From assembly GCA_964016885.1 (NCBI GenBank), contig OZ024748.1:10540001-10604000 (forward strand): DNA of 64,000 nt, in the 5' to 3' direction. Under the pieces are notes generated by a model. The model worked only from the letters and a program-made list of their open reading frames with translations. It made no database searches and was not told where the DNA came from. The position numbers and the translations under genes were made by a program. Position 1 is the stretch's first letter; each line of letters opens with the position of its first letter. This stretch comes from Eledone cirrhosa. Taxonomy: Eukaryota. Shown here one piece after another: positions 4,728 through 52,414 of this stretch.

Positions 4728-4859
4728 GTATGGGACTCTGTAAAGGGCGCCAACCCAGACCTAAAATTATGGGAAATTGGTAAAATCATTGGACAGATGT
4801 GGCGGGAATTGTCCGAAAAAGAGAAACAGGAGTATATGGATGAATACGAAGCAGAGAAG
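4728..4859 (+). CDS. SMARCE1: SMARCE1 HMG-box exon
   Basis: 132-nt exon bounded by ttcag|GTATGG and GAGAAG|gtaatg; encodes [17 protein letters not shown]. Confidence 0.95.
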
Positions 4860-12400: not shown

Positions 12401-15400
12401 AGCCTAGTGTATTGTTTTTATCAAAGGTTGATACATGGAAGACATCAGTCCAAAGGTTGAACTTCATAATTCCTGTTTTTATTATACAAAATTTTGATTT
12501 TATATTTGTCCTGAAGCTGTGTAGTTGGCTGGAATAAGATTTTATGTAATTGATACTTATTCTGTTTAATATGTGGAAGCTTGTGGCATAGTGGCTAGGA
12601 TGTTGGACAATGTCATCGGTTCAATTACTGGACCAGTTCACATTACTCCAGTACACTCAACTGAAAATGATTACCAGTAATAACTAAGGGTTAATCCTGA
12701 AAAGATTGGCATCCTGTCCAGGGGGAGCCTTGTACTCTGTAAATGGTGATGAAATTGGCCTGAGGAGCCTCCAGGCGTGGGACAGACTTTAAGTAACTTA
12801 ACATATCTATATCAAATAAAAGAGTTGTCACTCTTGTAATATATATTGATATGTTCCAAGTTGTCTTTGTGGTATCATAACTCACCACTTTGTGTGTGCT
12901 GTATAAATTACTGAATCTTTTCCTCAGTACTTCTGTCTTATAGGCACTGGAGAGTGGTAATAAATTTGGTGATGTAGGTTCAATATCTACCATTGATATT
13001 CATCTGTGATCATTAGAGCATCAGTATTTAGTCTAGTTCTTTATGTTCTAAGTTTATATCTCATCACGGTCAACTTTGTCTTTCATAAATATAATAACAA
13101 TGTAAAGTTGTGGAGTGGCAGATTCCTTTGTCTTTCATAAATATAGTTACAGTGTAAAGTAGTATAGTGGCAGATTCAATAGAGCTCCAAATGGGGGTAC
13201 TTCAGAGTGTGTTTGGGCTGGGGGGTACTTCAGAGTGTGTTTGGGCTGGGGGGTACTTCAGAGTGTGTTTGGGCTGGTTATTATGTTGGTTCAAATCCTA
13301 CCTCCTTTCATCGGATAGATGGTGATCCAACATGACTGAAGCGCGTATCATTGAATCTCTTGAGAAACCTCTTGTGATATACACACTAAAGAATACCACT
13401 GATTACATTTGGAGGGGAAAATCAATCAAAACCTAGTGTAGATATCAATATTGAAACCAAATTTCAACCTCTAAAGAAATATTCTTTAATAAATGTCTCA
13501 TAGTATGGAAGTAAGATCTATATAACTCTCCACTGAAAGTACTTCTATCAAAATAGATTAAATCTTTTGGTTATAGGGAGTGGATTGATAGGTGTAAATT
13601 ATAACTTACTTTTGTATTTTGTGCAATAGAATAGAAGTTACAGATTAACTTAAAGTTGTTTGAGCTAGCTCTCTCCTGCTTCCCACAAAGGTTTTCTTTC
13701 AATGTGATCTCATTGAGCTGCCAGCCATATTATATATATGCATACATGTATACACAAAACAGTATATAAAAGATAAATTAAGATAGATTTAATATCTGTT
13801 TCACTTCTGTTTATACATCTTACTGAAAATTTTAAGAAATGTAAAAAAAGGTTATTTCTTTGTACTAAAAGAATAACAATGTTTTTTCCCCATTTGTTCA
13901 AATTTTCAGATAGGTTTATAAGCTGTAGTTACATATATTCATATATTCATGTATTGTTCTTTTGCATTGGTGTAGTGTATTCTTGGTATTCTCGCAGAAT
14001 ATATTGGAATTATTAAATCTATGATAGTTTTTGTAGAATTTCGATTGTCATTTCTGATTTGTGTGTGTGTGTGCCGTATGTACTTATGTATTAGTTGCAC
14101 TGTAAAAGTACAGTGTTGAAAAACCAACAAGCAACTTATCTGCTGAACTTACAGAATCTCAGTTCAAAATGTATGGTACATTGTAGATATATGTAAAATG
14201 GAGGTGTGTCTTATACATGAATATATATGATGTATGTATATTATATATCATCAGCTGGTATATATATATATATATATACACACATATATATATATATATA
14301 CATACACATAGTTCTCTATACAAGTGTGTATTTCCATGTATCTGAATATCTATTATATTTTAAGTTGCTATCAGGACGTTCCCAGTTTTTGTGACTTCGT
14401 AATTTCATAATTTAATTTGACTTCAATAAAATAAAATTATACTTGAAATATATAATATATATAAAAAAAAAAGACACCAGTCAGTTTGTAGTGGATCGTG
14501 TATTACGATAAGTGCCAAACCATTGCAGATCCAGTACAACGAAGCAATGAAAGCCTACCACAACTCTCCCGGTTACCAGGCCTGGATTGCTGCAAAGGGA
14601 AGACTCAAAAATATTGGTATGTATTTGAGAGACATGAAATGGGGGATGATGATAGCTTTTGTTCTTAAGGCAAAAAAATTCTTTTAATTCTTCATAGTTT
14701 GTTCTTGAATCTTAAAGGAGGAATATGGAAAGATATATCTTCCTGCTGGTATATAGGACACATATTTATTTTATTTTGAGATTATGGTATATATATTCTT
14801 GAGAATTCTTGGTAGAAAGAATCACCAAAATCTGTAACTTGAACTCTTTATCTATTTTTTTTTAATCATTTGTTCTATTTATTTTTTATTCTCATTAATT
14901 TCTCAACACTTAAATTTCATAATTTTCTTATAACAGCTAAATATTTGGGGCAATACACATAATGCTTATGTTGTTATCATTCTTACTATCAGTATTAGGT
15001 GGTGAGTTAGCAGAACTGTTAGAGCAGTGAACAAAATGCTTTGCATTATATATTTTCGTACTTCCTTCCGCTCTAAGTTCAAATTCCACCAAGGTCAACT
15101 TTGTCTTTCCTCCTACCGAGGTCATTAAAATATGTATCAGTTACATACTTGGATCAATCTAATTGGGCATTCCTCTTTAAAATTTCTGGCTTTGTGCCTA
15201 TTTTAGAAACAATTATTAATAAATACTATCATCAAATTCCTATTTGAAATTATTAGAAAATTAGTGAATGGATCCATTTGAACTTGGTAAGCAGTTGAAA
15301 TTGTGGAGATGGGGATGCTCTTTAGATTTAACTCTTAACATCCTGTAATGATTTAGAACAAAAACTTTATCTAAAAAAAGGGGATTTAATAATTCAAACA

Positions 15401-17665: not shown

Positions 17666-18726
17666 CATTTATTAACACCACATATGAGGCTCAAAAACTG
17701 TGATTGCGTTGTAAGATGGGTTCGACACAGTCAACTGGCCTGTCCCTCCTCATGACAGAGCAATCCAGTCCCACACTGTACATTTGGTTGGTGTTAGGAA
17801 GGGCATCTAGCTGTAAAATACCCGGCCAAATGTATAGTCCTCACCGAAGAAAGCTACGACATGGCCAGATTTACCTTCCGGCATGGACAACTCGTCTAAC
17901 CCATGCAAGCATGGTAGAATTGCCACTAAACGGAAATGATAATGATCTGAATGATTGACAAACATCACATCAATAAACTAGTAACCCCATCTAGCTTTGA
18001 AGTTATGAACTGTTGGAAACCAGTTCAATATGTTAGGACTATTTATCTCGTCTATGGCACTGAAAAGGTAAAATGTGAAAAATACAAATTGAAATTTGTA
18101 AAAAGTTCATACATAACTGTCAAAGTAGGGAAACAACTAAACTAATAATGAAAACATCACAAACTGCATGTTTCTCATTGGTAACTTTGCTCCATTTATT
18201 GACTCAACAAAGAAATATAAAAAAGAAGTTTCTGTATTTTTAATTATCTATATTTCTACTTTATGCTAAATACCTCTTTGGAATAAAATTTTTTAATTAC
18301 GTGCAAATTGAACCAAAATATTTTTACTTGCTTTAAAATGCACTATGAGTATAGAAATGTTTGAGAACCACTGGGTTAGGGTGTTCAACTCATGATCATA
18401 AAGTAGTGGGTTCAATTCCTAAACCAAGGGGTGCACTTTGTGCTTGAGCAAGACACTTCATTTCATGTAGCTTTTCATGATAGACACCCTTACTCTTAAA
18501 ACACTTGAGAAATCTCTCATAAGATGCAACATCTTAGAAGGCTAGTGTTTGATATTGTCTGATCTTTTGTTTTTAACAGCAATCAAAATCTGATTCACCA
18601 AGGATTAGCATACAACCTGCAGATGATGAAGATGGTAGGTTGAACAAGTCTTTTCTGGTTATATATTTTTATTTATTTTCCAAATGAAGCAGTCTTTTGA
18701 CTGGAATAAAAGAAAAGTACTATGAT

Positions 18727-18759
<33 letters not shown>

Positions 18760-21700
18760 AATATTATATATGTGTGTGTATATATATATGATTTTATTTT
18801 TGTTATTTCAGATTTTGATGATGGTCTTTCTGTGAAGCATATTGCCCATGCTCGTTATTTGAGGAACCACCGTCTCATTAATGAAATATTCAGTGAAACT
18901 ATGGTTCCTGATGTTCGCACAGTTATTATGTCTACTCGGATGAGTGTCCTGCGGAAGCAAGTCTCTTCTTTAACCAACCATCAGGTAGAATATGCATGAC
19001 TGAATTTTTCTCTATCCGCTATTTTCTTCCCTTTTCTACTCCTGCCTCCTCCTTTTTTTATCTTTTTCTACTTCTCCTTCCTCTTCCTTTTTCTACCTCC
19101 TTCTACTTATCCCCCCTCTTACTTCCACTACTTCAGTCTTCATTTTCATGTGTATGTTTTAGAAAAAACTGGAATCTGAGTTGAAGTTAATTGAAGACAG
19201 ACATGAAGCAAAGAAGAGGAAATTCATTGAGAGCAGTGAATCTTTTCATGAAGATTTAAAAAAAGTGAGTTTATTTTTTTATTTATTTATTTTACTCTGT
19301 TTACTTGGGGGTAGACAATTTTCACATCAAATTTTTTGGGTAAAATGAAGGTGCATCCTAAACGCCAGAAAATCTGGTGGTTATTTAACTTTTTCTGATA
19401 TTCTTACTTCTATTGTAGCTGTGTGAAAGTAAACCACAGATCACAGATGAAGTGTTTGCTAACATGCTGGCCAAGGTGAAAGAAGAACTGCGTCAACGAC
19501 ATGCACAGTTTCTGCAACAACAGCAGCAGGCCAAGACTGTTGCAGCCTTACATCAGCAACTGCCACTGTCATCATCACCACAGCAACCTCCGTCAACGCC
19601 CACGCCCCCTGTCGGTTCCAGTATGTCACCTGCCACACCTGGTAGCTCGTCAGCAGCGACACCCGGCCCACCAGATTTAGACATGCAGGAGAGCGAGGCT
19701 TCCACCAAATCTAAAGAAGACGAAAAATGCGACACCATCGAAAAAATGGAAATTGAAGAATCCAAGAGCAATCTGGTAATTCTAGCAGTGAGGAAGATAT
19801 CTTGTGATCGTTGTGATGGTCGTTATGTGTTGAAGTGGTGGTGGTTGTTATGTATGTTGTATGTGTTGATGGTGCTCTTGATTGTTATATGTTGGTGTTG
19901 AAGTGCTAGTTGTTGTGTTGGTGGTGGTTTTATTGATGTTTGAATGAGATGGTTGTCATATGTTCTGGAAGGATGAAAATGACTGAATGAGAGGAGTAAT
20001 GGAAATAAATATGGAAGGAAATAGAGGAAGAGAAAGACAGAAAAAGACATGGCTGGGGATAATGAAAGCCAAGGGGTTTGAGAGTGGAGTAGAGGATAGG
20101 GCAAAATGGAGATGTTTATCTAGGATCCTGCAAAGCTATCTCCTGTTTTAGCAGTGAAAATGGCCTTAAAATACGTTGTTGTTGTTGTTGTTATTGTGGC
20201 CAGTGTCAGTAGGGTGATATGGCTCTGTGGTTTTAGGTGTTCCATCCTATTGCATGTCACCTTGGACAAGTGTCTTCTACAACTTCAGACTTGCCAATGC
20301 CTTCTGAATAGATTTGGTAAATGGAAATTGTACTGAAGTACTTCATATCTCTGAGTGTGTTTGTGTGTATAAAGGAATGTATTGAGTGAGATGGTGTCAG
20401 CCAACATGTCTAGGAGGACAATAGCCTCAATTAAATACTGACTTCATCTGAAAGACCTGTCCAACCCATGCCTGCATGGACAGCAGATGTAAAATGATAT
20501 AGTGTGTGAATGTCAGTATTAATGTCAAGACTGTTGGTTTGTTTGTTTGGCTCCCAATATAACAATCTTTGTCAGGCATGTCACTTTGGTGAACCATCCC
20601 TTGTGTTTGTAGGACTCTACATCGAGTGACAAACCTGAACCCTCTGATTTGAAAGAGGAGGAAGAAGAGGAAGAGGACGAAGAAGAATTAGATGAAACAC
20701 CAGAGACACCAGCAGCACCTGCAGCAGTGTTGAAGACGGAAGAACCTGATACACTCCCAGAAGCAAAGAGCCCAGTTTCAACGACAGAGACTACTGTCAC
20801 TACTACAGCTACTGCTAGTACTACTTCCACCACCACTACTCCTGCTACTAGTACTACTACTACTACTGTTACACCTCCTGCGGTATGTATTAACCCTTTC
20901 TTGATATCTCTAATAAAACACACCGCCTACCATTTTCAAATAATTTTGAAAATATTGCAGGAGTTTAGTATAACTTTCACATTCTTAATCTGCTTTTTAG
21001 AACATGATCTTACATAAAATTATGATGAAAGGTTTTTAAATAAATATAAATGCTTTAACCCTTTCATTACCATATTTCTAATGAAAGACACTGCCTATGA
21101 TTTTCAAATCATTTTGAAAATCAAGAATTTGGAGGGATCTAGTAATATAACTTTACGTTTTTAAGTTCAAATCTTGCCGAAGGTTGTATCTATAGAATAG
21201 GTACTAGTCAAGTATTGGCATAAAAGATATTGATGATCTTTGCTTTCATCCTTATGTGGTCGATAGAATAAAGTGCCAGTAATGCACTGGGGTCAATTCA
21301 ATCGACTTTCCCTTCTCCCCAAATTGTTGGCCTTGTGCCTTAATTTGAAACCATTATTATTATTATTTTTTGTTATTTCCCAGCCACCAATGACTGAAGA
21401 AATGTCTTCCTCAAGCACGCCAGCTCCAGATAGTTCTTCTACACCTGCTCCTGATAAAACTGAAACTCCTTCCCAGCTACCTCAAATCACTGAAGTATGT
21501 CATCACAAATTAACAATTTTCTATAATTTCATATTGAATCTGTTGTTGGTTGGGCTGATTGACACCTCAACATTGTGTGGGTCTGTGTGTTCTATGAGAA
21601 CAAATATATTATTTTACTCCTAATGCGCCTGACAACTGTAAAATAATAGCAATTGAGGCATATGGCTTAGTGGTTAGAGCATTGACCTTGCAATCGACAG

Positions 21701-24700
21701 GCTGTGAGTTCAATTCTCAGACCGGGTGATGTGATATGTTGTTTCCTTGAGCAAGACACTTTATTTCACATTGCTCCAGTTTACTCAGCTGTAGAAATGA
21801 TGAGATGATAGGGACTGGGGTCCATATCATTCCACTGCAAAGTGGTCGTGGAGGTGCCACAGCAAAAAAGCACCCAACACTCACTGTAAATGAGGTTGGT
21901 GTTAGGAAGGGCATCCAGCTGTAGAAATCAAGCCAGAATCAGTTCCCGTCCCACCCTTGCAAGCAGGGAAAAACGGACATAAAATGATGATGAGGGGAAT
22001 ATGCTGATGTTATCACAGAATGTGGCATCCAAAGGCCTCATACCTCCAGTGAGTCACGAGAATGGCTGAAAGTAATTTGAAAATCATGTGATCAGTTTGA
22101 AGACTGATTTTGAGTGAGCCCCACACAGCCCTCATTGAAGCCACCCAGATTTCTTTATTTGGGGCTATCTGAAGGATAGGGTGTATTTCAATAAACCCAT
22201 GTCCATCATTGAACTAAAGGAAAACACCAGTGGGGAAATCAAAGCCATTCCTAGATCTCTTTGTAGAGACGTTATGCAAAACTTCACCATGCACCTCAAA
22301 AAATGCGTTGATTCAAATGGGGGTCAGTTAGAACGTGCTGTAACTGGACAGAAACATCACAAGACTGGATTTTTTATGTGTTTGTTGTTGATAAATATAT
22401 TCAGAGTTTTTATCAAAAAATGAAATTCATTTTTTTGAAGATGGGGCCAGTTTTTTTCTTTCTTTTAGTCACTCTGTATAAATATATATATATATATCAA
22501 CTAGAAATTGCTTGACATATATATATATATCTAAAATAAACATATGAAACAATCACAGGGGATAATCTGTAAAAGTGTATAAGCACACACAGCTATGTGG
22601 GTAACTAATTAAAGTTTAACTAGAATTTCAAAAATAGATACCTTATAAATTGATTAATCTTCCTTGTATATATTTCATTAAAGAAATATATTTCACTAAT
22701 TAATCGATTGGTAAACGACAGTAGCTAAATCCTGGATTTTCAACAAGGAAGAAGACTTAACTATCTGTGTTTACACATCAAATTCAAATCTGTGACTAAC
22801 TAATAGCACGTGTTGCATTTAATACAAATACACACATCGCACCAGCTTCGTCCCAGTGGGGTGAATAGGGTTATCGACAACTAGGAATAGCAGTCAAGTC
22901 CTTTCAACTGAGTTAGCTCTACAATTAAGGAGCCGTATTTATCATCATCATCATCATCAACGTTTAACGTCCGTGTTCCACGCTTGCATGGGTTTGGACG
23001 GGGGTAGTCCCACTTGAGGCAAGAGTGATTGTCTTGCTCGCATAGGACTGTCTGGCAGGTTTTCTACAGTTGGATGCCCTTCCTAACACCAACCACATTT
23101 ACAGTGTGGGTCTGGGAGGTTTTTACCGTGTTGCCTACACGGCCACATTACAGCGTGGACTGTGTGTTTTTTTGTCGTGACACCTACACGATCTCATTTG
23201 TTTCGGCCTGGATGGCGCGGCACCAACATAACTTTACATAGAACGGGGTGGTGTGGATGGGGTGGGGGTGGCGGCGGGAGGGGTGTATTTTGTTAGAGAT
23301 GCCTACTGGCAAGGCGGGTCTTCTCTGTTACTGAGTACCGCCAAAGGTCACGGTCCAGTGACATTGTCTTGGAGAGGTGTAAGTGTGTGAGGTCGGAGTT
23401 TATCAGCTCATCCCATGTTTTTCTAGGTCTGCCTATTCCGTGGCTACCGTCTATCTTTATTGCCCTGCACTTTGTAATACAGCTATCGACTTTCATGCGC
23501 ATCACGTGTCCATACCAACGCAGCCTTCTCTCGAGTAAACAACATCTGATCCCTCTTATCTCTAATTTTTTCCTTAGTTCGTTTATGCTTTGCCGTTCAC
23601 GTATATTACTGTTACACATCCAGCGGAGCATGCAAGCTTCGTTCCTCTCTAGTCTGCGTATATCCTCTGCACACAATGCCCAGGTCTCACTACCATGCAA
23701 CATTGCTGTTCGTATGCAGGCATCGTACAACCTGCCTTTCATTTTTAGGGAGAACCCTTTAGCAGCTAATAGTGGTATAAGCTCTCTGAACTTTTTCCAA
23801 CCAGTTCTGACTCTAGCTACAGTACTTTCAGAGCACCCTCCCCCACTGCTGATTTTATCGCCCAGGTAACGGAAGCTGTCCACTATTTCTATAAAACCCT
23901 CTGCGCAATTGAAAGAGCTAGTATTTTGTGGGCACTTGCTGCTACTTATTGCACCAGAACACCGGCCACATGTAAAGTCTATGTTCTTAGTTAGCTTACC
24001 TGTGATCCCACTACATCTTTTATGCACCCATACTTTGCATTTAGGACATAAGATGGAGTTTCTACCTACGCCTTTCCTACATACCGAGCACGACCATTTC
24101 CCAGAAGGGACCGCCGCCTTGTTTTCTTTCCTACAAACTAGAACTTTGGTCTTAGCCAGGTTAATTTTAAGTCCTTTTGACTCTAGGCCGTGCTTCCATG
24201 TTTGGAATTTCTTCTCTAGCTCGGCCATTGATTCCGCTATGAGTGTCAGGTCGTCTGCGTATAGGAGTTCCCATGGGCAGCCTGTCTTGAACTCCTCTGT
24301 TATAGCCTGAAGGGCAATAATAAATAGTAGGGGGCTGAGAACAGAGCCCTGATGGACGCCAACTTTTACGCTAAACTCTTCACTATATTCGTTGTTAATT
24401 CTAACCTTGCTGACTGTTTCTTTATACATGGCTTGTATAGCCCTCACAAGCCATTCGTCAACGCCTAGTTTTCTAAGAGCCCACCAGATAATGGAGCGGG
24501 GGACTCTGTCGAAGGCTTTCTCCAGGTCGACAAAAGCTAAGTAGAGGGGTTTACCTTTAGCTAGGTACTTCTCCTGTAGTTGTCGTACTATGAAAAGAGC
24601 GTCTGTGGTGCTTTTGCCTGACACAAACCCGAACTGCATTTCATCTAGATCAATTCTCTCTCTGATTAGTTGCGCTATTACTTTTTCCGTGACCTTCATG

Positions 24701-26503
24701 ACCTGGTCGATTAATTTAATGCCTCTATAGTTACTCCTATCTAGGGCGTCTCCTTTACCCTTATAACAGTTAACGATGATGCTGCTATGCCAGTCCTTCG
24801 GAACAACCCCATTCTGTACGACTTGGTTAACTATGCGGGTGACCATGGTGTGTCCCACCGTGCCAGATGCCTTCAGCATCTCAGCAACTATTTCCGAAGG
24901 CCCAGCCGCCTTACCAGTCTTCATATCCTTGATTGCCTTACTTATTATACTCCCCTCGACTAACACTGCTGGTCCCTCTATCGGGTCGATATGGGGGAGA
25001 CTGTCTTTCTCCCATTTATTCTCCTCATTTAGTAGCCTTTCATAGTGACACTTCCAAGCTACCTTCTTATCAGTGTCGGTGATTTATATATATCCAAAAT
25101 CTAAATTAAATTAAGGGTGTCATGTCAGAGAGACATGCGCCATATCCACTGTAAAATATGCTCCAAGATTCCAATGAATAGATCCGAACATATATCAACT
25201 AGAAATTGATTGACATATATATGTATCTAAAATAAACATATGAAACAATCATGGGAGCACATTTTACAGTGGATATGGCGCATGTCTTTCTGACATGACA
25301 CCCTTAATTTAATTTAAATTTTGGATATATATATATATACTGTATTTTCCGGCCCCCTCCTCGAGCACGTACCCTAATTTTGAAAAAAAAATAATGAACA
25401 ACTATCGGCCTCCAGGACGGATAGTAGATTTTTGAGACTTATTTTAGGAAAAAAGTAGCCTCTTCAACACCAGGCAATACGGTATATATATGCTTCATCT
25501 CTGCTGTGCTGAGTTCAAATTTGCTTCCTATTGCTGAAAAAGCAGTGATGTGCTCTGCCATGAGTTGTGTCCAGCAGATAGTATCACCAATGGAAGCATT
25601 TTTTTCTTTGTTCCAATTTGACAACCTGTTCGTTTTTATCTTTTTTAAACGTGCTGTTCTCTACATGGTTTGATTTTTCAGGAGAAAGCAGTCGTAGCAG
25701 AACCAGTTGTGGAGGCCCCAGTTGCTGAGAAGGAAGTTGTCCCGGAAGAGAAACCAACTGAGTCTACAGAAGTAGCTGTTGCTTCTGATAGCAGTCCTCC
25801 TCCTGTTGCTTCTACTGTTGTTGCTGCAACTACTACTACTACTACAACTACTTCTACTTCTTCTCCTAATGCTACTAATGCTACTTCTGTTGCCACCCCT
25901 CCAGTAGAGACCACTACTTCTGAAACTACAGCTGCTACTACTACAGCCAGTACTACTACTACAGCCACTACTACTACTACAGCCACTACTGCTGCTACCA
26001 CTGCTACTGCCAGTGGAGACAACAATGTGGAGATGACAGTTGCCAGTGAGAAGACACCTACACCACCACCACCACCACCACCACCCCCTCCGCAACCATC
26101 ATCATCACCACCACCACCACCACCTCCTGCAGTCCTTCCAGCTCCTTCCACTAGTACAACTGCTATCACATCTACCACTACTACTCCAACTGTTGCTGCT
26201 GCTGCTGCTGCTACTACTACTACTTCTACTACTACTGCTGTTGCTGCTACCACCACTACTACTACTGCCGCTGCCACTGCCGCCACCACTTCTTCAACCA
26301 CCACTACTGCCACTGCCGCCACTACTGCTGTTACCACTACCACCACCACCACCACTACTGCCACTGCCACCACAACTGACACCCCTGCTGTTCCTCCACC
26401 TCTTCCTACTGCTTCTTCTGAAGCTCCAGAAACCAAACCTGATACTCCAGCCACCACTACAGGTAGGTCCTTAGTCTTGCACTCATAACCTTCTCATGCT
26501 CTC

Positions 26504-27315: not shown

Positions 27316-30300
27316 TCAGTTGAGGGTCGATCTCTCTCACACACACACTCAGTTGAGAGTCAGTCTCTCTCTCTCTCTCTCAACTTATCCAACACATTGA
27401 AACTAACCTTTCTCTCAATAACAAAAATGTATGGTTTTCTTATATAACTGAGAAGTTGAATTGAAGACAAACTGGGTTGATTTTTTTTTAAAATAATTGG
27501 CTGTGTGTAAAATATTGTCTGGCTTTCTATTTAAAATAATTAAACCTTGGCTGGAAAAGATGTTGAGCCAGATGTTGGAAATGGTGCGGAAATGTTTTTG
27601 TTACTTAGTATATGTCAAATGGAGAAGGTAGATTGGACTGAACTATGGCCGGTAGAGCAAGATGTGCAGAGAAGAAGTTTTGAGAACTGAATAGTGTGTT
27701 AGTGAGAAATGCCATGATGGCTGATGAATGTGGAGCAGCAGAGAAGGATGAAAAGAAACAGAAAGAAGAATGATTTTGAGGATGATTGTAGTATTACTTA
27801 GAGGAAGAGAAAGAATGAAGTGTTGAGGATGAGAGAAATAAAGCCAGTGATGAATGTTGTGGATAGAAAATGGTATGAAATGCTTAAGTTGTGTGTTAAG
27901 GAAGGATGGAAATAGAACCAGTGATGAATGTTGTGAAAAGAAATGGAATGAGATGCTTAGTTTGTGTGTTAAGGAAGGATGAAAGTGACAAGGCTAAGAT
28001 GAGTGATGAAAATAAACATGGAAGGATGTAGAGACAGGTTTGGAGAGACCAAGAAAAACATTACTAAAGATGATGGAGGAGGAAATGAAAGCCAGGAGGT
28101 TGTTGAAGGGGAATGTAGAGGATAGGGCAAAATGGAGAAGCCTGTCATGGGTCTTGCAAGGCTAACCCCTACTTTAGCAGGGAAAACATCCCTAAAGCAC
28201 TTATTTTATGTTCCACTCCATTTAAGGTAATGTAATATTAAATCATTTCTTGTTCAAAGTTTGACTTTGACACAACTAAATTGTTGTTTACTTTCTTTGT
28301 TATTACAGCTACCAGGCAATTCAAAAATATTCATTCTTTTGAAATGAATTTTTTTCTTAATTTTTTATGAAATATTTTCAAGATTTAACTCATTAATTTC
28401 TTTGTAACCATTTCAATTTATTATTAGTATTTTAGTTAACTAACTTCACTAAACTAAAATAATATTCACCAATACATGGTAAACTTAGAAAAATTGTTTT
28501 TTATGCAACTAAGTTCAGCACATCACAATCTCTAGTATACACTCTCTCTCATAAACACATTACCTTTCTCTCTCCCTGATTACCTCTCAATCAACCTCTC
28601 TATCTCTATTTCTAAATATCTATCTATATATTTATCTACCTATCTATCTCCCACTACTACAATGGTATTGACTACACTAAACTAGAGCAGGCTACTGCTA
28701 CCCCCACCTCACCCAATGCGCTATGTTGTGGTGTACCACTTCCTCTCTTTCCACTTTTCTTATTCCTGCTATCACTGTCTCACTCTTGTAAACACTGTTA
28801 CTACTAAATACTCTACACCCAGTCATTCCTCTCCAAAATATTGGAACATCTACCCATGTCCCCCTCTCCCCTTTTTTGTTTTAAATGTGAGATCCTTCAA
28901 AGACTATGGACATTGCCTCTTTCTCCCCATCATCGGAATTAAATATTAAAAAGGTTGATAAAATAAAATAAAATAAAAAATATTTAAATAAAAATATTCA
29001 AAATATTGAAGTCCTTAACTTAGGAAGAAAAAAATGTTTTGTTCATTTATTTAAGGAGATGAAGTTTTGGGATTTCGGATTTTTAATTCTTGTATGTTTG
29101 TCTTGCACTATTTTTTGCTGCTTTCAGACTTTCAGATAATAAGAAAGACAAAATTTACCTCAACATTAAATTTCTTTGTTTTTTTTGTTTTTTTCTCTGT
29201 ATTTCTCTCTCTTTCTATCTATCTATCTTCTATAATACCCCTTCCCCCCAGAAAAAAAAAAGCGGAAGAATTCTTCAAGAAATCCACCATCATCAGACAG
29301 TTCCTCAATTCAACACCTTGTCAAAATCTTTTACTGTTCCTAAAAATTGTCGTTAATTGTCTAATAAAAAGACAAGCTGAGCTTTCAGCCTTCTCTCATT
29401 CTTCATTCTCATTTCAGAGCTTGACAAAGTTAAGCAGCAGACTAATCTTTCAGCGTTCACCATGAAACTGCAGAGAAGAAATTTTCGAGCCATGATGTTC
29501 CTGCATTACTCGAAAGGGAACAGTGCAGCTGACTGTCATGAAATTTTGTATCGATTATTTCAGGATTTAAGTCCCTCTTACAGTACAGTAAAATTCTGGT
29601 TTGGAGAATTTAGACGTGGTAAAGAAGATCTGGATGATGACCAAAGATCTAGCCGCCCTAACGCTTCAATACTCTCTGAAAATATTGAAGTGATAGAGGC
29701 GATGATGCATAATGATAAAAGAGTAACGCCTAAAGAAATAGAAGGCACCTTAAGCATCGGATCAGGAAATGTCAAATGGATTCTGCAGAACCATTTGCGT
29801 TTGAAACAGCACAGCTGCTGTTGGATTCCACAAACTCTAACCGAAACGCAAAAGCAGGCGCGAGTGGAGTGGTGTCAATACATGCTGAAAAAATTTGAAA
29901 ACGGAGGTTCTCCTAAGGTCTGGGACATTGTCGTGGAAGACCAAATTTGGCTCTATCAATATGAACCAGAGACGAAACGGCAAGCTTCTGTTTATGTCTT
30001 TCCTGATGAGGACCCGCCTTTAAAAGTGAAACGGCCGAGAAGCATCGGCAAAACCATGATGGCAACTTACTTCCAAAGAAGTGGCTACTTGGTAACCACA
30101 CCTCCGACAGACAGGGAAATAGTCAGTGCACAGTGGTATGTGACCAAGTGTTTACCACAGTTGTTTGAAGCGATCAAAACGAAGCGCCCAGACTCAGGCC
30201 TCCGCGGCATTCTCCTGCACCACGATGACACTCGCATCAATACTGCTGCAGCGACACTCGACTTCCTGGCCGAAAACCACGTACAGATAATCTCTCACCC

Positions 30301-31247
30301 GGGCTCTAGCCCGGATTTGTCTCCATGCGATTATTTTCTCTTCTCCAAAGTCAAAGAAAAGCTGAGGGGCATCCGATTTGAGAGCCCTGACGAGGCTGTA
30401 CAGGCGCTGGTCAACCAGATGTCCCAACTGTCCAACTTTGAATGGACTCAGTGTTTTGCAAATTGGTTTAAAAGAATGAAAACTTGTATAGATTGTGAGG
30501 GTGACTACTTTGAAAAAACCTGAGTACTTACTGTACTGTAAATTGTATTTTTTTTTTATTTTATTTTTTTTTTTTTTTGGAGAAACCAACCCAAAAAAAA
30601 AATAAAACCGACCAACCAACAAACAAACAATACAGACAATAAAACCAAAAACACAAAACAGTTTTTTGTTGTAAGGTGTTGAGGACAGGAACTCTCTGAA
30701 TGTTAATTGTACATAGCCCACTATTATTATTATTATTATAGCCTATCATTTTCTATTACCTTAGGCAAATTCATAATATTTATCTATCTTCACCCACATT
30801 TTTTTTTCCATTAATATATAATAATAATAACTAACAACATAGTCGTTTAACCCTTTTCTCTCCCACCACCCTCCCCACCCTCCCTTCACCTTGCCTTTGA
30901 TTAAACAAAAACAAAATATTCATACAAAAACAAAATATATATATATAATATACGAAAGCTACTATATATATTAGAAGTTTTCTCTCTTCCTCGTGAGTTA
31001 GCCGTTTTTCATTAGGGGGTGTCTGTCAACTGACCGACCCTTGAAAATTTACTTTCAACTTGTATTGCTGTTATCTTCTCTTTCAGAATCAGAGGCAGCA
31101 ACAGAGAAAGACACAGCAACCACTGTGTCTTCAAATAATGTCTTGCAACAAGCCGAACAGTGGAACGGTGTGACGGACAGCACTCAGGCTACTTCAGAGG
31201 GAACAGCTGATAGTGAGGAGGAGGAGGAGGAGAAAAGCAGCAAATAA
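4728..31247 (+). CDS. SMARCE1: SWI/SNF (BAF) subunit SMARCE1/BAF57, 5'-partial, multi-exon, canonical isoform
   Basis: Phase-consistent GT-AG exons: 4728-4859 ([47 protein letters not shown] box), 14529-14616 ([25 protein letters not shown]), 15607-15647, 18580-18634 (SIQPADDED), 18812-18984 ([32 protein letters not shown] domain), 19163-19264 ([21 protein letters not shown], coiled coil), 19419-19775, 20613-20882, 21384-21494, 25682-26462 and 31087-31247 (stop). The sum is 2271 nt, divisible by 3. Motifs match vertebrate SMARCE1 as I recall them. N-terminal exons were not found in the window. Confidence 0.95.
5326..5541. mobile_element. piggyBac-type MITE (TTAA target duplication, CCC...GGG ends)
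   Basis: ttaa|cccttttgatacc ... ggtaacaaaaggg|ttaa. Relatives at ~2157-2337 and ~40905-41260. Confidence 0.7.
13192..13277. repeat. Minisatellite, 28-bp unit x3
   Basis: gggggtacttcagagtgtgtttgggctg repeated. Confidence 0.9.
15328..15526. mobile_element. TTAA-flanked MITE with a perfect 16-bp TIR
   Basis: ttaa|ctcttaacatcctgta ... tacaggatgttaagag|ttaa. Relative at ~5840-6055. Confidence 0.75.
17398..17490 (+). CDS. SMARCE1: Candidate in-frame SMARCE1 cassette exon (31 aa; 33 aa if the donor after 17496 is used)
   Basis: cttccag|AAC...CGA|gtaaga/gtaagt. Open frame [31 protein letters not shown]; phase 0-0, matching the flanking exons. Confidence 0.6.
21656..21993 (+). mobile_element. tRNA-derived SINE with an RTE-derived 3' tail
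   Basis: A/B-box head (tggcttagtggttagagc...gagttcaattc). Body and tail are shared with the RTE LINE 3' UTR (gttggtgttaggaagggcatccagctgtagaaa...atgatgatga). Confidence 0.75.
22000..22478 (+). mobile_element. Decayed Tc1/mariner (rosa/maT-like) 3' fragment with terminal repeat end
   Basis: Reads (W)[23 protein letters not shown]...[12 protein letters not shown] with stops; ends ...cactctg-TA. This is a different family from the 29462 ORF. Confidence 0.7.
22941..25082 (-). mobile_element. 5'-truncated RTE-like non-LTR retrotransposon (LINE) in a SMARCE1 intron
   Basis: 557-aa ORF at 23293-24966 with RT motifs ([39 protein letters not shown]) and a C-terminal [11 protein letters not shown]...GRPRKTW. 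Has a 3' UTR and a (GAT)n tail at ~22941-22960; no endonuclease domain is present. Confidence 0.92.
25094..25324. mobile_element. MITE-like element with ~71-bp inverted arms, flanked by (TA)n
   Basis: Arms 25094-25164 and 25254-25324 are reverse complements with 3 mismatches. Confidence 0.7.
25682..26462 (+). CDS. SMARCE1: SMARCE1 Thr/Ala/Pro low-complexity exon
   Basis: ttttcag|GAGAAA...ACAG|gtaggt, 781 nt, phase 0 to phase 1; lies within ORF 25670-26488. Confidence 0.85.
29418..30523 (+). CDS. Mariner (DD34D) transposase-derived ORF; candidate alternative terminal exon of SMARCE1
   Basis: 353-aa ORF at 29462-30523 with an HTH region ([12 protein letters not shown]...SRP) and the motifs WIPQTL (WVPHEL-like), [14 protein letters not shown] and [13 protein letters not shown]; 34 residues separate the 2nd and 3rd Asp. 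The acceptor (ttctctcattcttcattctcatttcag|) lies 44 nt upstream of the ATG and is in frame with the phase-1 donor at 26462. Confidence 0.85.
31087..31247 (+). CDS. SMARCE1: SMARCE1 canonical terminal coding exon (acidic tail)
   Basis: tctctttcag|AA TCA GAG..., phase 1, ends [10 protein letters not shown]. Followed by an AT-rich 3' UTR containing AATAAA motifs. Confidence 0.85.
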
Positions 31248-43514: not shown

Positions 43515-45643
43515 GAGACAGAGACACCTCAGTATATATATATATATATATATATAGTAGAGACAGAGACACCTCAGTATATATATATATATATATAGTG
43601 AGGTGTCTCTGTCTTTACTATATATATATATATATATATAGTAGAGACATAGAGACACCCCACTATATATATATATATATATATATATTTGTAGCTTAAT
43701 GGCTATAAATTACTGTTTGTCTTTCATCTTTCACTCCTATATATATATATACAGCAAGGTACCTCTACTGTATATGGTATAGAACAAAGACCAAACACGT
43801 ACCTTGATTCTTGTTCATTTTGATGAGCATCTGTTTCATCCTGGACATGTTGGACCTCTGTCTGGCCAGGTACTCACTTTTGTACTTCAACCATTCCTTC
43901 CTGGTGTGGAAAAACAACAACAACTGAAACATCATCATCATCATCAATGAGACAACAATAGGGAAATTGGTAATTTTTCTAGGTTGTTTCCGTTGATTTT
44001 AAAAAAAATAGAATTAGTTTAGTTTACATATTGAGACCCCAACCCATCCTATTTATTTTACTTATTCGAAACCCAAGAGTAGATAAAAACAAAGGAAGAC
44101 AACTCACTTTGAAATGACACGTAAGTGCGGCAATTGTTTGGATCGTTTCCGATTCTTATGACGCCGTTTCTTATTATAATCTACAGAACAATCCCGTTGC
44201 ATACTGCTGTCAATGGAATCTTCTGCTCCGATGTATTTTATACGTTTTGGTACATTCTCCAGATCACTTCCAGCGGCGCTATCGATACTATCTTTCTTCC
44301 GTTTCCTCTTAGATCTTTTACTATCCTTTGCAGTAGAATCGGCTCCTTCATCTGCAGACAGATTTTCCGACCTAGATTCACTTGTTTCAATAGGGGCTGT
44401 CTTTTCTTCTTGTACCGATGCCGGAGTCTCGGTCGACTCCTGCTCATCTGAGGCTGGCTTTACGTCTGCCTCGGACTTTTCAGCTAGTCTGTCTGTGAGT
44501 TCGATATCACTTAACTTTGGGTTGCTGCTTGACCGACGCTGGAGCTTGCACTTCTCTGGAGAGAAGACGTCATTGGAGAGTTTGCTGCAACTGTCCGACC
44601 TGTGTCTTTTCTTCTTCTTTTTCTTCTTCCAACTGCGGTCTTCGTCTTCTGACTTGGTGCCACATTCCTCTGTTGTCGGAGTTTCAAGCTTCACATTCGT
44701 TTCGTCAGAGTTTTCCCCACACAAAGAATCCAGCTTCCGGTGTTTGGCTGGTCGGCCCAGATCCTTTGCCTCGGAACAGCTACTGTGGCGTTTTCGTTTA
44801 TGCTTGTTGCAAGCTTTGATCTTTGGACTGTCATTGCTAATGAGATCAGATTCCGGTTTCTCCTCATTCATGTCAATGCCGTCTAAAGAAAAAAGAAAAA
44901 TGAAAAAATAATAAAGAAAAAAGGAACATAAAGTCAGGGGTTTTTTTTTTGTTATATAAAATCGTCTTAATTCCTATTTCTAACAGGCATAAGGCCAGCA
45001 ATTTTAAAGGAAGAGAAAAGTTAATTAAATCAACGCCAGGACTTTTCAAGTACTTATTTTATCTACTCTGGAAGGATGAAAGACAAAAGTGACCTCAGCA
45101 GGATTTATACCTTCCTATATATATATATATATAAACATATGTTGGTAGATGTATTAATTCTCTATATATATTTATATATATAGAGAATTAATACATCTAC
45201 CAACATATGCGTACAGATGTACACTAATACTAGTAAATATATAAGTTATGTCAAAGTACCTAGGTGGTTCAATGCAGGGGGATGCAGAACAATTATATGA
45301 AAGACGTAAAATAAGAAAATTTTAAAAATTAAAAATTAACTTACTAAAATTTTCACTCCAACTAATTTTACGTCTTTCATATAAATATATATATATATAC
45401 ATAGACTCTTTTCCTAATATATCAAGCGTAAAACTAATAATATATTTTTTCATTGTACTGTGTCATTTGCTTTATTTCTGTTTGCCTTTTGCATACTTTA
45501 TATATATATATATATAAGTTTATCCCGGGTTCACTCGGGGGTAGCCACAGTAAGTAAGGTACTCAATACAAAGCAGAGTATATATATATATATATATATA
45601 TAGGTATACAAACATCACCACTCACACATACATCCACACTCTT

Positions 45644-45678
<35 letters not shown>

Positions 45679-48600
45679 GCCAGCCCATCCATCTATTCAC
45701 CTACCATCTGTTTGGACTTTCTTCTTCAATTGGTTCAAGGCTTTATTATTCTTGGGGAACTTTCCAGGTTTATTCACAGTTTCAATTGGCGGCCGATTTA
45801 ATTCCTACAACAAAAACAACAATCACAAAATAATTCCATTTTTGCTGTTTCAGATCCATTCTTCTCAATTAGCAAATCAATCTTCATCATAATTATTTTA
45901 TGTCTGGCATATTTCCATGTTGGCATGGGTTGGACAAGTTATCATGGTCAGAGAGAGAGGTTGTATAGTCAAGGTGTATAGGCATGGTGTTCCTACAGCT
46001 GTATGCCCTTTCTAATGCAATCCACTCTGCCATATATAGTCTCTGTTTAATCACCAACCACTTTACAGAGTGTGGCATCAGCACTACAGAGGTTGTCATG
46101 CCAAGAACAGACAAAAACACAGAGAAGATGAAAGAAGGAAACAGATGAAAGGACACAGAAGATGAAAGAATAACAGATGAAAACACACAGAAGATGAAAG
46201 AAAGTAACAGATGAAAGGACACAGAAGATGAAAGAACAGGAGATGAAAGGAAGGTGAAAGAAGAACAGATGAAAAGACACAGATAAAAGAAGGAGACATA
46301 AATACTTACTTTACAAGCTCTTTGTGCTCCCTCAATTGTTTCAAACTCAACAAAGGCAAACTGTTTGAGGTCACCAGTGGTCTTGTAACGTGGAAGACTT
46401 ACATAGGTGACCACTCCACATGAGGAGAACACATTCTTGAGCCAGTCATGATCAGTGTTGGCTGGCAGCAGTTCCTGAAAATATGGAATCACAACATTGT
46501 GTATGTATATATATCATCATATATATATATATATATATATACAAATGTGAGGAATCAAAATATATAAAATGTGTTAGATAAAGTCTATTGAGCTTGTTTA
46601 TTGAGAAGTACAAAAATCTCTGAGAATGTGAGGGTAAAGAGAGAGAAAGAGAGAAGTGGAGGGTGCCGGAGAGAGGGGGGAGAGAGAGGAATAATTCAAA
46701 CAATGTCTCACCACATAAACTGTTCTGTCATCGACATCTTTAGGCTCCGTGTAAGGTGCGACACGACACACACTGTTCTGATCTTCACTTAACTGGAGAG
46801 AAAGACAATAAAAATATGTTTAAAAAATAAGAAAAGACAAATATCTATGTGGCTTAGTGGTTAGTGAGTGGACTGCTCATGATAAAAAGGTTGTGAGTTT
46901 GATTCTCTAATGACTCAGCCAATCTGCCACCTATGTACATATGTATGTGCTCCGTTCATTGGTGTGTTCTGGGGAATTATAGAAAGGATATATGACACCA
47001 AACCTGTTAAAATGTTTTCTTACCTTTAAAACGGTAGAAGTTGACAGTGCCTTACGTATGACAGACAGATCTTCAGTTAGAATCTTGATACGGTTAAAGG
47101 TTAAAAATAACGATAAATCAATATCTGAAAAACAAAATATGAAAAATAAATAAATAAAAACAACAGTCAAGTCTTCAAGAGGATGTGAAGGTTGTGGACG
47201 TCTTCACCAACCTTGGAAGCTCTATCAACAGAAGTGGGGACATAGTGAAAGAAATTAATTGCAGGATAGGCAAAGCTTTGCCTTTAACTCCTTAGCATTT
47301 AAAATGGCTGTATCTGGCCTGAATTTTCTCATCTCTTCCTGTTCAAACCAGCTGTAACTGGCCACTCATACTTATGTTAACCCTTTAGTATTTATATTAC
47401 TCTATATTTACTATTGTATTTTCACAGTAAAGGCTTTATCTAACATAATTATCTCACATAATATCGAAGCCACGGGATTTTGATGTTATTTATTTTGAGA
47501 AAAGTACCTTAACATTGGTACAAGTGGCCGATTATGGCTGGTTAAAACAGAAAGAGGTGAGAGAATTCTGGCCAGATACAGCTGGTTTAAATGTTAAAGG
47601 TTTAAGATATTGTTCTCAAAATAAATAATATCAAAATCTGATAGATTTGATATTATGCGAGATAAAGCCTTTACTGTGAAAATACACTAGTATATATAGA
47701 GTAATGTAAATGGTAAAGAATTGAGCTACACAACAGGATCTGGAGAAGCAAAAAACTTTCACTTGGTACCAAGATGAGATTTTACAATAGCAAACAAAAG
47801 TTGGAATGATGTATTGATAGATGCAACTGACCGTGGTCATTGGAGCACTTCGGTTGCTGGAACATAGAAGATTTTAGTCAAAAAATATATGTATCTTCAC
47901 CATCTTCATTATCATTATTTTTATGGTAACCTTTCCATGCTGGTAATGGTGAGATGTGACTTTTTAAAGGAATTATTCTATGACTTGATGACTTTCTTGA
48001 CATCAATCTATTATATTTAAACAAAGTTTTTTTTTCAAGGTATGATTTATGTTTGAGATAAACCCACAAATAGAAGCATAAAAGTTGGAAACACTCGATT
48101 CTGATTTCCCACTATACTGTTGCCATGACAAAATACATAAAGCCTACCCTGTATGCTGATCTGGTGCCACAACAACAAAAGCACCGAGTCCACCCTATAA
48201 GGTAGTCATGTCTGTGACACGAGAAAAAGCACTCAGTCCAACCTATAAGGTTGTCACGCTAGTGACACAACAAACAGCTCCTAGTCAAATGAGTGAGATC
48301 GTCGTGTTGATGACACGACAAACAGCATCCAGCTGTAGAAACCAAGCCAAAATACAGATCCACATGAGCAACACAAGGTCTCCAGACCTGACTTGTCTCA
48401 TAACCCATCTAACCCATGCAAGCGTTGTAAATAGATGATGATGATGATATATAATAAATAAACTTACATCCATCTTTATCTTTATCAATTTGTTTCTTAA
48501 AAAACCGATCTTTGTGTAAATTTGAATTACTGAAGTAAAACTCCATCTGAAGTTAAAATGGGGAAAACAACATTTAAAAATAAAAATAAAATATAATTAG

Positions 48601-50292: not shown

Positions 50293-52414
50293 GAGGTTAT
50301 ATTTAATTTGTTGGGATACAACAAGCTTCACTATCCAGGAAGCTCCAACCGTTAAGGTAGTCTTTTTTCAGGGTATGTCAATATTTATTTATAAAACTAA
50401 TCTGTATTGTATTTTATCTGATGAAAGCGCACCATAATTTGCCTTGGTGGCCCTTGAAATATGTATAATAAAATAAATATGGTTTTATAAATATAGTTTC
50501 CATTTGTTAATATATTGTATATATATATATATATATTATATATTTCGTTTCTGAATTTGTTTAGCAAGATTCTTTATCTGAAAACGTGTGTTGAAACCAA
50601 TATTGTTATACTTTGGGAGGGTCATGTTGCCAATAAGAAACACACGCACCAGTTGCTTTCACTTCAATTTATTATAATAAATTTATAAATTTAGGAATTT
50701 ATAAATTTCCAGTTGGTTGGTTGGTTCCACAACCAGATGATTGTTTATATATTGTCAAAGTTCTTTCGTCACACATTCTGTGACCTCTTCAGTGACTGGG
50801 CATTCTTTTCTTTGTTTTTGTGCCTCTCCTTTGTTCTGTCCTACGCCATCTTGTTTTTCTGTGTGTGAACACACACAAAAACAAGATGGCGTAGGACAGA
50901 ACAAAGGAGAGGCACAAAAACAAAGAAAAGAATGCCCAGTCACTGAAGAGGTCACAGAATGTGTGACGAAAGAACTTTGACAATATATAAACAATCATCT
51001 GGTTGTGGAACCAACCAACCAACCAGAAATTTATAAATTTATTATAATAAATTGAAGTGAAACAACTGGTGCGTGTGTTTCTTATTGGCAACATGACCCT
51101 CCCAAAGTATAACAATATATATATATTTATATATATATCATTTTTTTTTTCATCATCATCATTTTACGTCCGCTTTTCCCTGCTTGCAAGGGTGGGACGG
51201 GTCTTATTCAGCACAGCATCTCTCCACTCGTCACAGTCCTTCGTCATCTCCACCCTGAGCTTCCATGATCTGAGGTCTGTTCTCACCACCTCCGCCCATG
51301 TTTTTCGTGGTCTACCTCTACCACGTCTTCCTTCAACTGGCATTTCCTGGCACTTCTTCACCCATCGGTCATCCTCCATGCGCATCACATGTCCATACCA
51401 CCTCAGTCTCCTCTCCCGTACATTACATTCTATCCCTCTCAGACACAGTTTCTCTCTCAACACATTTATGCTGGGTCGTTCACGCACATTTACACTGCAC
51501 ATCCAACGGAGCATGCTTGCCTCATTTCTCCCCAGCCGTCGCATATCCTCTGCAGTTGCTGCCCATGTCTCACTACCATGCAGCATCGCGCTCCTCACAC
51601 AGGCATCATACAACCGGCCTTTCGTACACAGGGAGAAACCCTTCTTCGTCAACAGAGGAAGCAGCTCCCTAAATATATATATATATATATAGTTAGTTAT
51701 AGCTCTGGTTCATCCGAACCTTCAGCAAGACTTTTATTTCACGTACCAGTTCACTCAGTTGTAGAAATGAGTTCCAACGTCACTCGTGCTAAGCTGTATT
51801 GGCCATTACCTTTCCCTTGGACACCATTAGTGGTGTGGAGAGGAGACTGGTATGCATGGGGGTTACTATTCTTCCTCAAAAAACATATATATACGCACAA
51901 ACACACACATCTGGCTGACTTAAGAGGGAATGGGAAAATTTGAAATGTAGTCGTTTCAACGCAAATGATTGTAATAATAGAAAAATTCTAGTAAATACCT
52001 ACCCCAGGAGACGCAAAGTTTGGATAGACGGGACTGCGAGGAATCGAACCCCGCACCTTGATTCGTCGCAGGCGACTCAGATAACTATTTTTCCACGTCG
52101 CTAGGGGGTATTTTACTCGACTTTCGTAACTGTTATTTATAGTGATCTACTATTGTATATAATCATCTGCGTTGGGACGACCACATTTCGAATTTCACAC
52201 ATATATGTCTAACCCATGCATGTGTGGAAAATAGACGTTAAACGGCGATGATGATGATGATGATATATATAAAGCTACACCCATCTTTTAACAAACTGAT
52301 AAAGCGATAGCTTGAATTTCTGCAAAATACCATTATGTTTTTTCCCTCCCTTTCTCACAAATTGATCCTTACACTATATCATTTATATTAAAATCTTAGC
52401 CGTTCACAGACACA

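Follow-up and report, generated by a model that had tools for sequence, protein, structure and literature searches.

SWI/SNF chromatin remodellers are usually considered to depend on transcription factors for finding their sites. In vertebrates, fusions of host genes with transposases by alternative splicing have reportedly been described by Cosby et al. (2021, Science), with mostly KRAB, SET and SCAN partners in tetrapods. The locus discussed here lies in a 64,000-nucleotide stretch of the genome of the octopod Eledone cirrhosa (contig OZ024748.1, positions 10,540,001 to 10,604,000, forward strand; hereafter the window), in which a mariner-derived open reading frame (ORF) is located in the last intron of SMARCE1, the gene of the SWI/SNF (BAF) subunit BAF57. 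A first-pass annotation had described this frame as a mariner transposase with an intact catalytic triad and drifted neighbouring motifs; it missed the main finding here, namely that the frame serves as an alternative last SMARCE1 exon. The octopod case resembles the vertebrate fusions in the capture of a transposase by splicing onto a chromatin-related gene and differs in that the host is a core subunit of BAF and the organism a mollusc.

The primate fusion CSB-PGBD3 (ERCC6 with a piggyBac element), as outlined in its report (PMC2268245), is arranged in the same way: a whole intronic transposase serves as an alternative 3' terminal exon behind an in-frame acceptor, the host is related to remodelling, both forms are made and the arrangement is conserved across species, while the octopod fusion is known from a junction contig and its protein is predicted. 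It differs in being derived from piggyBac and not from mariner, and in being described without the ATPase of its host, whereas the octopod fusion keeps all known structured regions of BAF57 and swaps a short tail. PGBD3 also has more than 600 MER85 target elements according to that report, whereas none was found for the octopod exon.

SETMAR (Metnase), the fusion of a SET domain with Hsmar1 (PMC6326780), likewise carries a mariner behind a chromatin protein, and DNA targeting has been proposed for it. As the first-pass annotation had correctly stated, its triad is described there as DD34N, with Asn in the third position; its catalytic domain is described as drifting (ratio of non-synonymous to synonymous substitutions, Ka/Ks, of 0.7 vs. 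0.1), whereas the octopod triad is intact and the domain conserved. The octopod host is, unlike that of SETMAR, a subunit of a multi-protein machine. Orthology with SETMAR was considered and rejected, as the fused model has no SET domain and its third catalytic residue is Asp; the database label 'SETMAR-like' is a best-hit name only.

The mariner transposases Mos1 and Hsmar1 (PDB 3hot, 4u7b, 5hoo) share with the octopod exon the fold, two helix-turn-helix (HTH) motifs, the DD34D spacing and the equivalent of W159. In contrast to them, the exon is single copy, has lost the equivalents of H122 and Y276, and has changed motifs around the first and second catalytic Asp. Neither terminal repeats nor a TA duplication could be recognised convincingly, whereas active mariners have terminal inverted repeats (TIRs) of about 28 bp. 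The Drosophila genes CG14478 and toy are further invertebrate domestications of Tc1/mariner elements, one fused to a host domain and one keeping the DDE fold; in the published account (PMC13548663) each keeps the DNA-binding or the catalytic module, whereas the octopod exon, spliced alternatively onto a SWI/SNF subunit, keeps both. All features of a host-transposase fusion that could be examined are present at the octopod locus, which on copy number and on the WVPH/YSPDL pair is no active mariner. No paper on a SMARCE1-mariner fusion was found in a literature search whose scope stopped short of subscription journals and octopus genome supplements, which could list the gene.

An alternative last exon of SMARCE1

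The host gene is SMARCE1/BAF57. Exons of the Argonauta protein model GAB1609329.1 map over 4728-26462 and 5' of the window (tblastn with P0034), where the first SMARCE1 exons sit, and the front part of this model matches human SMARCE1 at 1e-84. Both the HMG box and the NHRLI/KLCC region are present; the latter, NHRLI with its flanking coiled coil, is described as the portion of BAF57 resolved inside BAF (PMC9170682). AG/GT borders were found at all 11 in-window host exons, the first two introns of the NHRLI/coiled-coil exon set show GT..AG joints in 4/4 runs, and the NHRLI exon is single copy genome-wide.

The mariner ORF (29381-30523, + strand) is uninterrupted over 380 codons, in agreement with the first-pass annotation, which had noted neither a stop nor a frameshift; its ATG at 29462 would start a mariner-like protein of 353 amino acids (aa). 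It lies on the host strand behind its own splice acceptor (Table 1). Use of this acceptor was observed in run X24, in which the share of the stretch is 0.92 and GT..AG joints are present in the host gene; the type of this run is unrecorded, and no run carrying the stretch is recorded as RNA. One X24 contig covers 29415-30537 with zero differences and bears 26 extra letters at its 5' end, and the identical 26 letters precede 31084, at the ordinary last exon, in a second X24 contig. The sole occurrence of these letters in the window is 26434-26459, where the penultimate exon ends, and the reading frame is maintained across either join. The transposase exon is therefore spliced in frame to host coding exons (one contig, one run, short side of 29 letters). 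The 30-letter start shared by the two contigs would be the pattern expected of contigs branching at an alternative acceptor in a 31-mer assembly, and no spliced DNA copy was present among 8 DNA matches. The ordinary last exon is spliced to the upstream exon in runs X24, X1, X5, X12, X2 and X16. Both forms read through to one terminal stop, with 1105 in-window codons for the mariner form, and their predicted lengths are about 880 aa (ordinary) and 1190 aa (fusion), counting about 89 residues encoded 5' of the window. It is very probable that the SMARCE1-mariner fusion transcript is real and conserved.

X24 contigs also cover introns, so coverage of the ORF alone is uninformative. Another X24 contig, on 30745-31113, may represent a fusion transcript continuing into the ordinary 3' end, or pre-mRNA. 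No contig was found over 29788-30451 in X1, X5 and X12 (85% threshold) or over the mariner exon in X2 and X9 (80% threshold), and neither result was counted as evidence; the word share of 0.10 in these runs may stem from the simple repeat after the stop. The intron 5' of the acceptor (29263-29417) is alignable in another organism (X16) and may mark a splicing or promoter element.

Table 1. Features of SMARCE1 and its mariner-derived exon in the window.
Feature	Positions	Strand	Basis and remarks
Mariner-derived alternative last coding exon of SMARCE1	29418..30523	+	Open frame, junction contig; phase 1; stop 30521-30523
Pyrimidine tract and AG acceptor of mariner exon	29394..29417	+	Sequence; used in X24 contig; register matches sister copy L002
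Former transposase ATG, start of 353-aa stand-alone models	29462..29464	+	Aligns with start of intact relatives; O. bimaculoides XP_014783185.1 begins here
First HTH, Pfam HTH_48	29474..29623	+	E 1.9e-9; best conserved part
Linker motif CWIPQTL (Mos1 RWVPHEL)	29819..29839	+	H122 equivalent is Gln
D160, first catalytic Asp (VEDQIW)	29939..29941	+	Kept in 4/4 orthologous sequences; Val in 4/4 sister-copy sequences
D255, second catalytic Asp (HHDDTRIN)	30224..30226	+	Ser in 4/4 sister-copy sequences
S282, replacing Tyr of YSPDL (Mos1 Y276)	30305..30307	+	Phe in Argonauta, His in sister copy
D290, third catalytic Asp (SSPDLSPCD)	30329..30331	+	34 residues between D255 and D290
SMARCE1 HMG-box exons	4728-4859, 14529-14616	+	tblastn with P0034; Pfam HMG_box; human SMARCE1 match
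SMARCE1 NHRLI/coiled-coil exons	18580-18634, 18812-18984, 19163-19264, 19419-19775	+	Human SMARCE1 match
SMARCE1 penultimate exon, Thr/Pro-rich tail	25682..26462	+	AG/GT borders; phase-1 donor shared by both last exons
Ordinary last coding exon of SMARCE1, short and acidic	31087..31247	+	Contig joins; frame

Copy number, conservation and age

Protein searches of the genome scored the best 115 candidates per search, of 7953 and 10036. With the mariner exon as query, the 115 scored matches comprised the exon itself, one sequence at 47% identity (the sister copy L002 on contig C12) and 113 at 27-33%; with a canonical relative as query, the same two loci ranked first (51% and 42%) and the remainder lay at 34-39%. 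Among these scored candidates, neither the multiple close copies that mark an active mariner nor a close parent family was found, and thus no active multicopy family with the same motif variants, the observation that the first-pass annotation had named as fatal to its own proposal. An exact 115-bp copy of 29786-29900 lies within a long TA microsatellite at L032:1501-1615 (G000:C13), and could be an assembly artefact or a small captured fragment.

The exon, a single copy in this genome, also lies in SMARCE1 in a diverged species. The Argonauta model GAB1609329.1, a member of the same 90% cluster as the ORF, is a 1243-aa fusion with the HMG box in front and the transposase at the end. A search for longer fused proteins gave none at E 1e-20 among 2463 candidates, and was blind here, since P0034 exists as a cluster member. 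Identity to the orthologues is 93% for O. bimaculoides, 93% for a Logan protein and 89% for Argonauta; the Logan protein is possibly from the same species as another row, so that the four orthologous sequences may represent three species. Compared with Argonauta, 326/367 residues of the mariner exon are identical (88.8%), against 258/266 (97%) in structured BAF57 and 235/443 aligned residues (53%) in the disordered tail, and by domain the identity is 52/55 (94.5%) in the first HTH and 89.5% in the catalytic domain. The 89% of the transposase exon vs. the 53% of the host tail indicates purifying selection, and the long-term selection on the fold that the first-pass annotation had proposed is supported.

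The split between Argonauta and Octopus is calibrated at 29 million years or more, as reported (PMC12682272). No squid, cuttlefish or vampire-squid orthologues turned up in the searches, which may reflect annotation, and the age of the exon is therefore bounded from below only. A scan of metagenomes (3/64 parts) gave nothing nearer than 39%, so the terminal repeats of the parent and any inborn acceptor are unreadable.

An imperfect inverted repeat without TA (29293-29319 and 30673-30699, 22/27 matches, arms 1.4 kb apart) flanks the mariner exon, and 5/40 shuffles reach it. As a genome query it gave two matches, both its own arms (control, three), and it was rejected as a repeat family because it occurs nowhere else in the genome. 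It could represent worn terminal repeats, or RNA pairing that loops out the acceptor.

The sister copy

The sister copy (L002:1492-2582, or G000:C12:35188530-35189620, - strand) also has an open frame, with an acceptor in the same register. It has no GRP linker, and its first and second catalytic Asp are replaced by Val and Ser, respectively. Across octopods it shows 84-88% identity in the catalytic domain and 94% in the first HTH. Orthologues were found in O. vulgaris (CAI9721525/6) and Argonauta (GAB1597971), and these models start with a leader exon of five residues. In the genome this leader exon (L053) lies at C12:35200060, 10.4 kb upstream, and an in-frame stop precedes its ATG; downstream of L002, over about 140 kb, no long minus-strand host exon was seen among the output listed. 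Close to the leader exon, in L040, lies a 301-codon open frame (G000:C12:35203643-35204545, + strand), which may represent an intronless cyclin-family gene, going by its resemblance.

A tree of 39 proteins, from which six partial hits and two near-duplicates were excluded, joins seven tamed sequences in one clade (support 100/99) nested among mariners. The stems are long (0.31 shared; 0.37 and 0.70) and the tips short, and 18 residues that are rare in relatives are common to all eight tamed sequences. The simplest reading would be one domestication followed by duplication; a less simple possibility would be two captures of one extinct family that carried its own acceptor. Of the two sister genes only one has the triad, which makes them a natural experiment on why a tamed catalytic domain is retained.

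Transposase domains and the catalytic triad

The marks of the DD34D mariner lineage, namely HTH_48, an RNase H fold, the DD34D spacing and nesting among mariners, were all found. In Pfam, HTH_48 scores above the cut-off and the DDE_3 match is weak. The structure predicted from a 30-sequence alignment has a mean local confidence (pLDDT) of 85 and a template-modelling score (pTM) of 0.62. Mos1 transpososomes and the SETMAR domain rank highest among its structural matches in Foldseek; the comparison with Mos1 that had been suggested earlier thus gives a Mos1-like fold (E 4e-23). D160, D255 and D290 align with the Mos1 triad, and the triad and its 34-residue spacing are intact as first described.

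The drift of the neighbouring motifs that the first-pass annotation had emphasized is in part real. Compared with 24 intact relatives (P0002-P0025; 40-51% identity, from 33 hits of which the orthologue and eight shorter or distant hits were excluded), nine positions are true departures from the family: T158V, G159E, E161Q, N256D, A257T, H260N, Y282S, H124Q and R120C. Part of the drift is ordinary family variation, as WIP replaces WVP in 7/24 relatives, SPDLSP occurs in 3/24 and the E of WVPHEL is variable throughout. W178Y and L215P are private to the lineage of the window. The contrast drawn earlier with the Tc1/mariner relic at 22000-22478 holds insofar as this relic has decayed and carries stops in each of its three frames. 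Its motif presumably belongs to another Tc1/mariner subfamily, and the relic is therefore not a like-for-like control.

Transposition has probably been lost, as already proposed, judging from the loss of residues that position the strand for cleavage. In Mos1, H122 and Y276 are described as flooring a pocket for the flanking T, and all substitutions of the His are reported to be hypoactive in Hsmar1 (PMC4344528). At the H122 position, Gln is found in 8/8 domesticated sequences and His in 22/24 relatives, and the WVPH/YSPDL pair is not intact (Q124, S282). In addition, the account of CSB-PGBD3 (PMC2268245) describes Mos1 as intolerant of N-terminal fusions. Mos1 W159, reported as required for excision and strand transfer (PMC5481204), has a retained equivalent in W163.

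Retention of the triad itself is weak evidence of catalysis and no special signal. Among 108 columns that show at least 90% conservation in the 24 relatives, 23 differ in one or more of the four orthologous sequences, and 71/91 (78%) of the family-conserved columns of the catalytic domain are retained in all four. At this rate, the joint survival of three given residues has a probability of about 0.47, treating columns as independent and alike, so that survival of the triad is expected about half the time. The earlier suggestion that an intact triad points to a kept nuclease activity is not supported on this count, and the sister copy has kept its frame and its catalytic-domain identity without the first two Asp residues.

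Proposed role and competing explanations

The reading favoured here, to which a probability of roughly 0.6 is assigned, is that the fusion joins SWI/SNF and steers the remodeller to particular DNA sequences through the helices of the transposase, likely without transposing. The penultimate SMARCE1 exon spliced in frame to the single-copy mariner exon would yield the predicted fusion protein. This protein would likely assemble into SWI/SNF, because the HMG box, NHRLI and the coiled coil are all encoded upstream of the junction and nothing but the short acidic tail is exchanged. A tether of about 470 residues, mostly Thr/Pro-rich, would link the transposase to the rest of the protein; the two HTH motifs of the transposase would bind DNA and bring the remodeller to particular sequences, and its catalytic domain may be kept as a folded, probably dimerising scaffold and not as an enzyme. 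The history would be that of one mariner tamed before the split of Argonauta and Octopus, which gave rise to the mariner exon and to a catalytically dead sister gene, while the parent family became extinct. If true, a lineage-specific BAF57 form with a transposase DNA-binding domain would hard-wire targeting into the complex and could have rewired octopod chromatin. The range of transposase capture by splicing then takes in a mollusc, and also a host protein that is a structural subunit of a multi-protein machine.

Several observations weigh against this reading. The 29-letter side of the single junction contig is below the 31-letter bridge rule, and the run is of unrecorded type. The intron-covering contigs of X24 have a depth of about 18, and the depths of 13.8 vs. 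92.9 of the two joined contigs hint at a minor form, depth being a poor measure of expression. The junction residues of the Argonauta model differ. The ratio of non-synonymous to synonymous differences per site (pN/pS) of 0.39, from 18 listed differences over 108 N-terminal codons, indicates moderate constraint in the sole DNA comparison, a small sample. The GRP linker motif reads SRP, and the linker and second HTH are the least conserved part (85%). Target sites were not found, with no repeated TIR or miniature inverted-repeat family in the genome. Finally, the conservation of the catalytic domain comes close to that of the first HTH, in contrast to SETMAR. DNA targeting alone does not account for this, and the pattern suggests that the domain serves as a scaffold or in dimerisation, or that some nicking activity persists.

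The strongest of the other explanations, though an improbable one, is that the main product is a stand-alone protein of 353 aa from an intronic promoter and the fusion a minor by-product of the kept acceptor. O. bimaculoides is annotated in this way, the ATG at 29462 is kept in 4/4 orthologous sequences, and a contig of run X16, from another organism, is unspliced over the 5' part of the exon (29291-29773), with intron sequence alignable from 29291. The sister copy is modelled as a nearly stand-alone protein behind its short leader, and PGBD3 transcripts are described as also arising from a cryptic promoter (PMC2268245). However, a stand-alone gene would not need the stretch between acceptor and ATG, which is open and similar in the window, Argonauta and the sister copy, and the junction contig exists.

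Slightly less probable is a nuclease-bearing BAF subunit, in which the DDD centre would still coordinate metal and nick DNA where remodelling takes place; this transfers the proposal of the first-pass annotation to the fusion. The triad in 4/4 orthologous sequences, the kept W163, the 89.5% identity of the catalytic domain to Argonauta and its intact predicted fold are in line with such an activity. The chance survival of the triad calculated above argues against it, as do G159E and N256D, which add acidic groups beside the triad, the lost H122 and Y276 equivalents, and the sister copy, which shows that the domain can be conserved without the first two Asp residues. A bolder version, doubtful to about the same degree or a shade more, would give BAF its own sequence-specific, dimerising, metal-dependent nicking module that finds and cuts or bridges sites, with the dead sister as partner or brake.

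It is considerably more doubtful that the protein represses the remaining mariner copies, families of about 30% identity, and uses BAF to close them, either binding their ends or acting as a poison on their transposases. The genome contains numerous further mariner copies, of which some have open frames, and host defence has been proposed in the report on CSB-PGBD3 (PMC2268245), but these families branch elsewhere in the tree, and shared recognition of ends would be unlikely at 30% identity. An ordinary or recently inserted transposon, conserved by chance or horizontal transfer, is very improbable and largely refuted by the copy number, the Argonauta fusion model and the junction contig: the motif changes are fixed and common to the species, and the flanking inverted repeat, the one feature in its favour, is within reach of shuffled sequence and confined to this locus.

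Other features of the window

The window consists of AT-rich eukaryotic DNA. Three runs from other organisms depart from the NHRLI exon at 18812-18984 by no more than 0-2 bases, with unusually few synonymous changes, unlike the exon at 19419, for which the divergence is about 13%. A SMARCE1 intron contains a 596-codon ORF of a long interspersed nuclear element (LINE), which encodes a reverse transcriptase and includes a PHD-like finger (23293-25083, - strand), and a further fragment of the same kind lies at 51164-51709 (- strand). Exons of a neighbouring gene, convergent with SMARCE1 and encoding an RRM domain and a Lys/Arg-rich region, are found at 44104-46513 (- strand).

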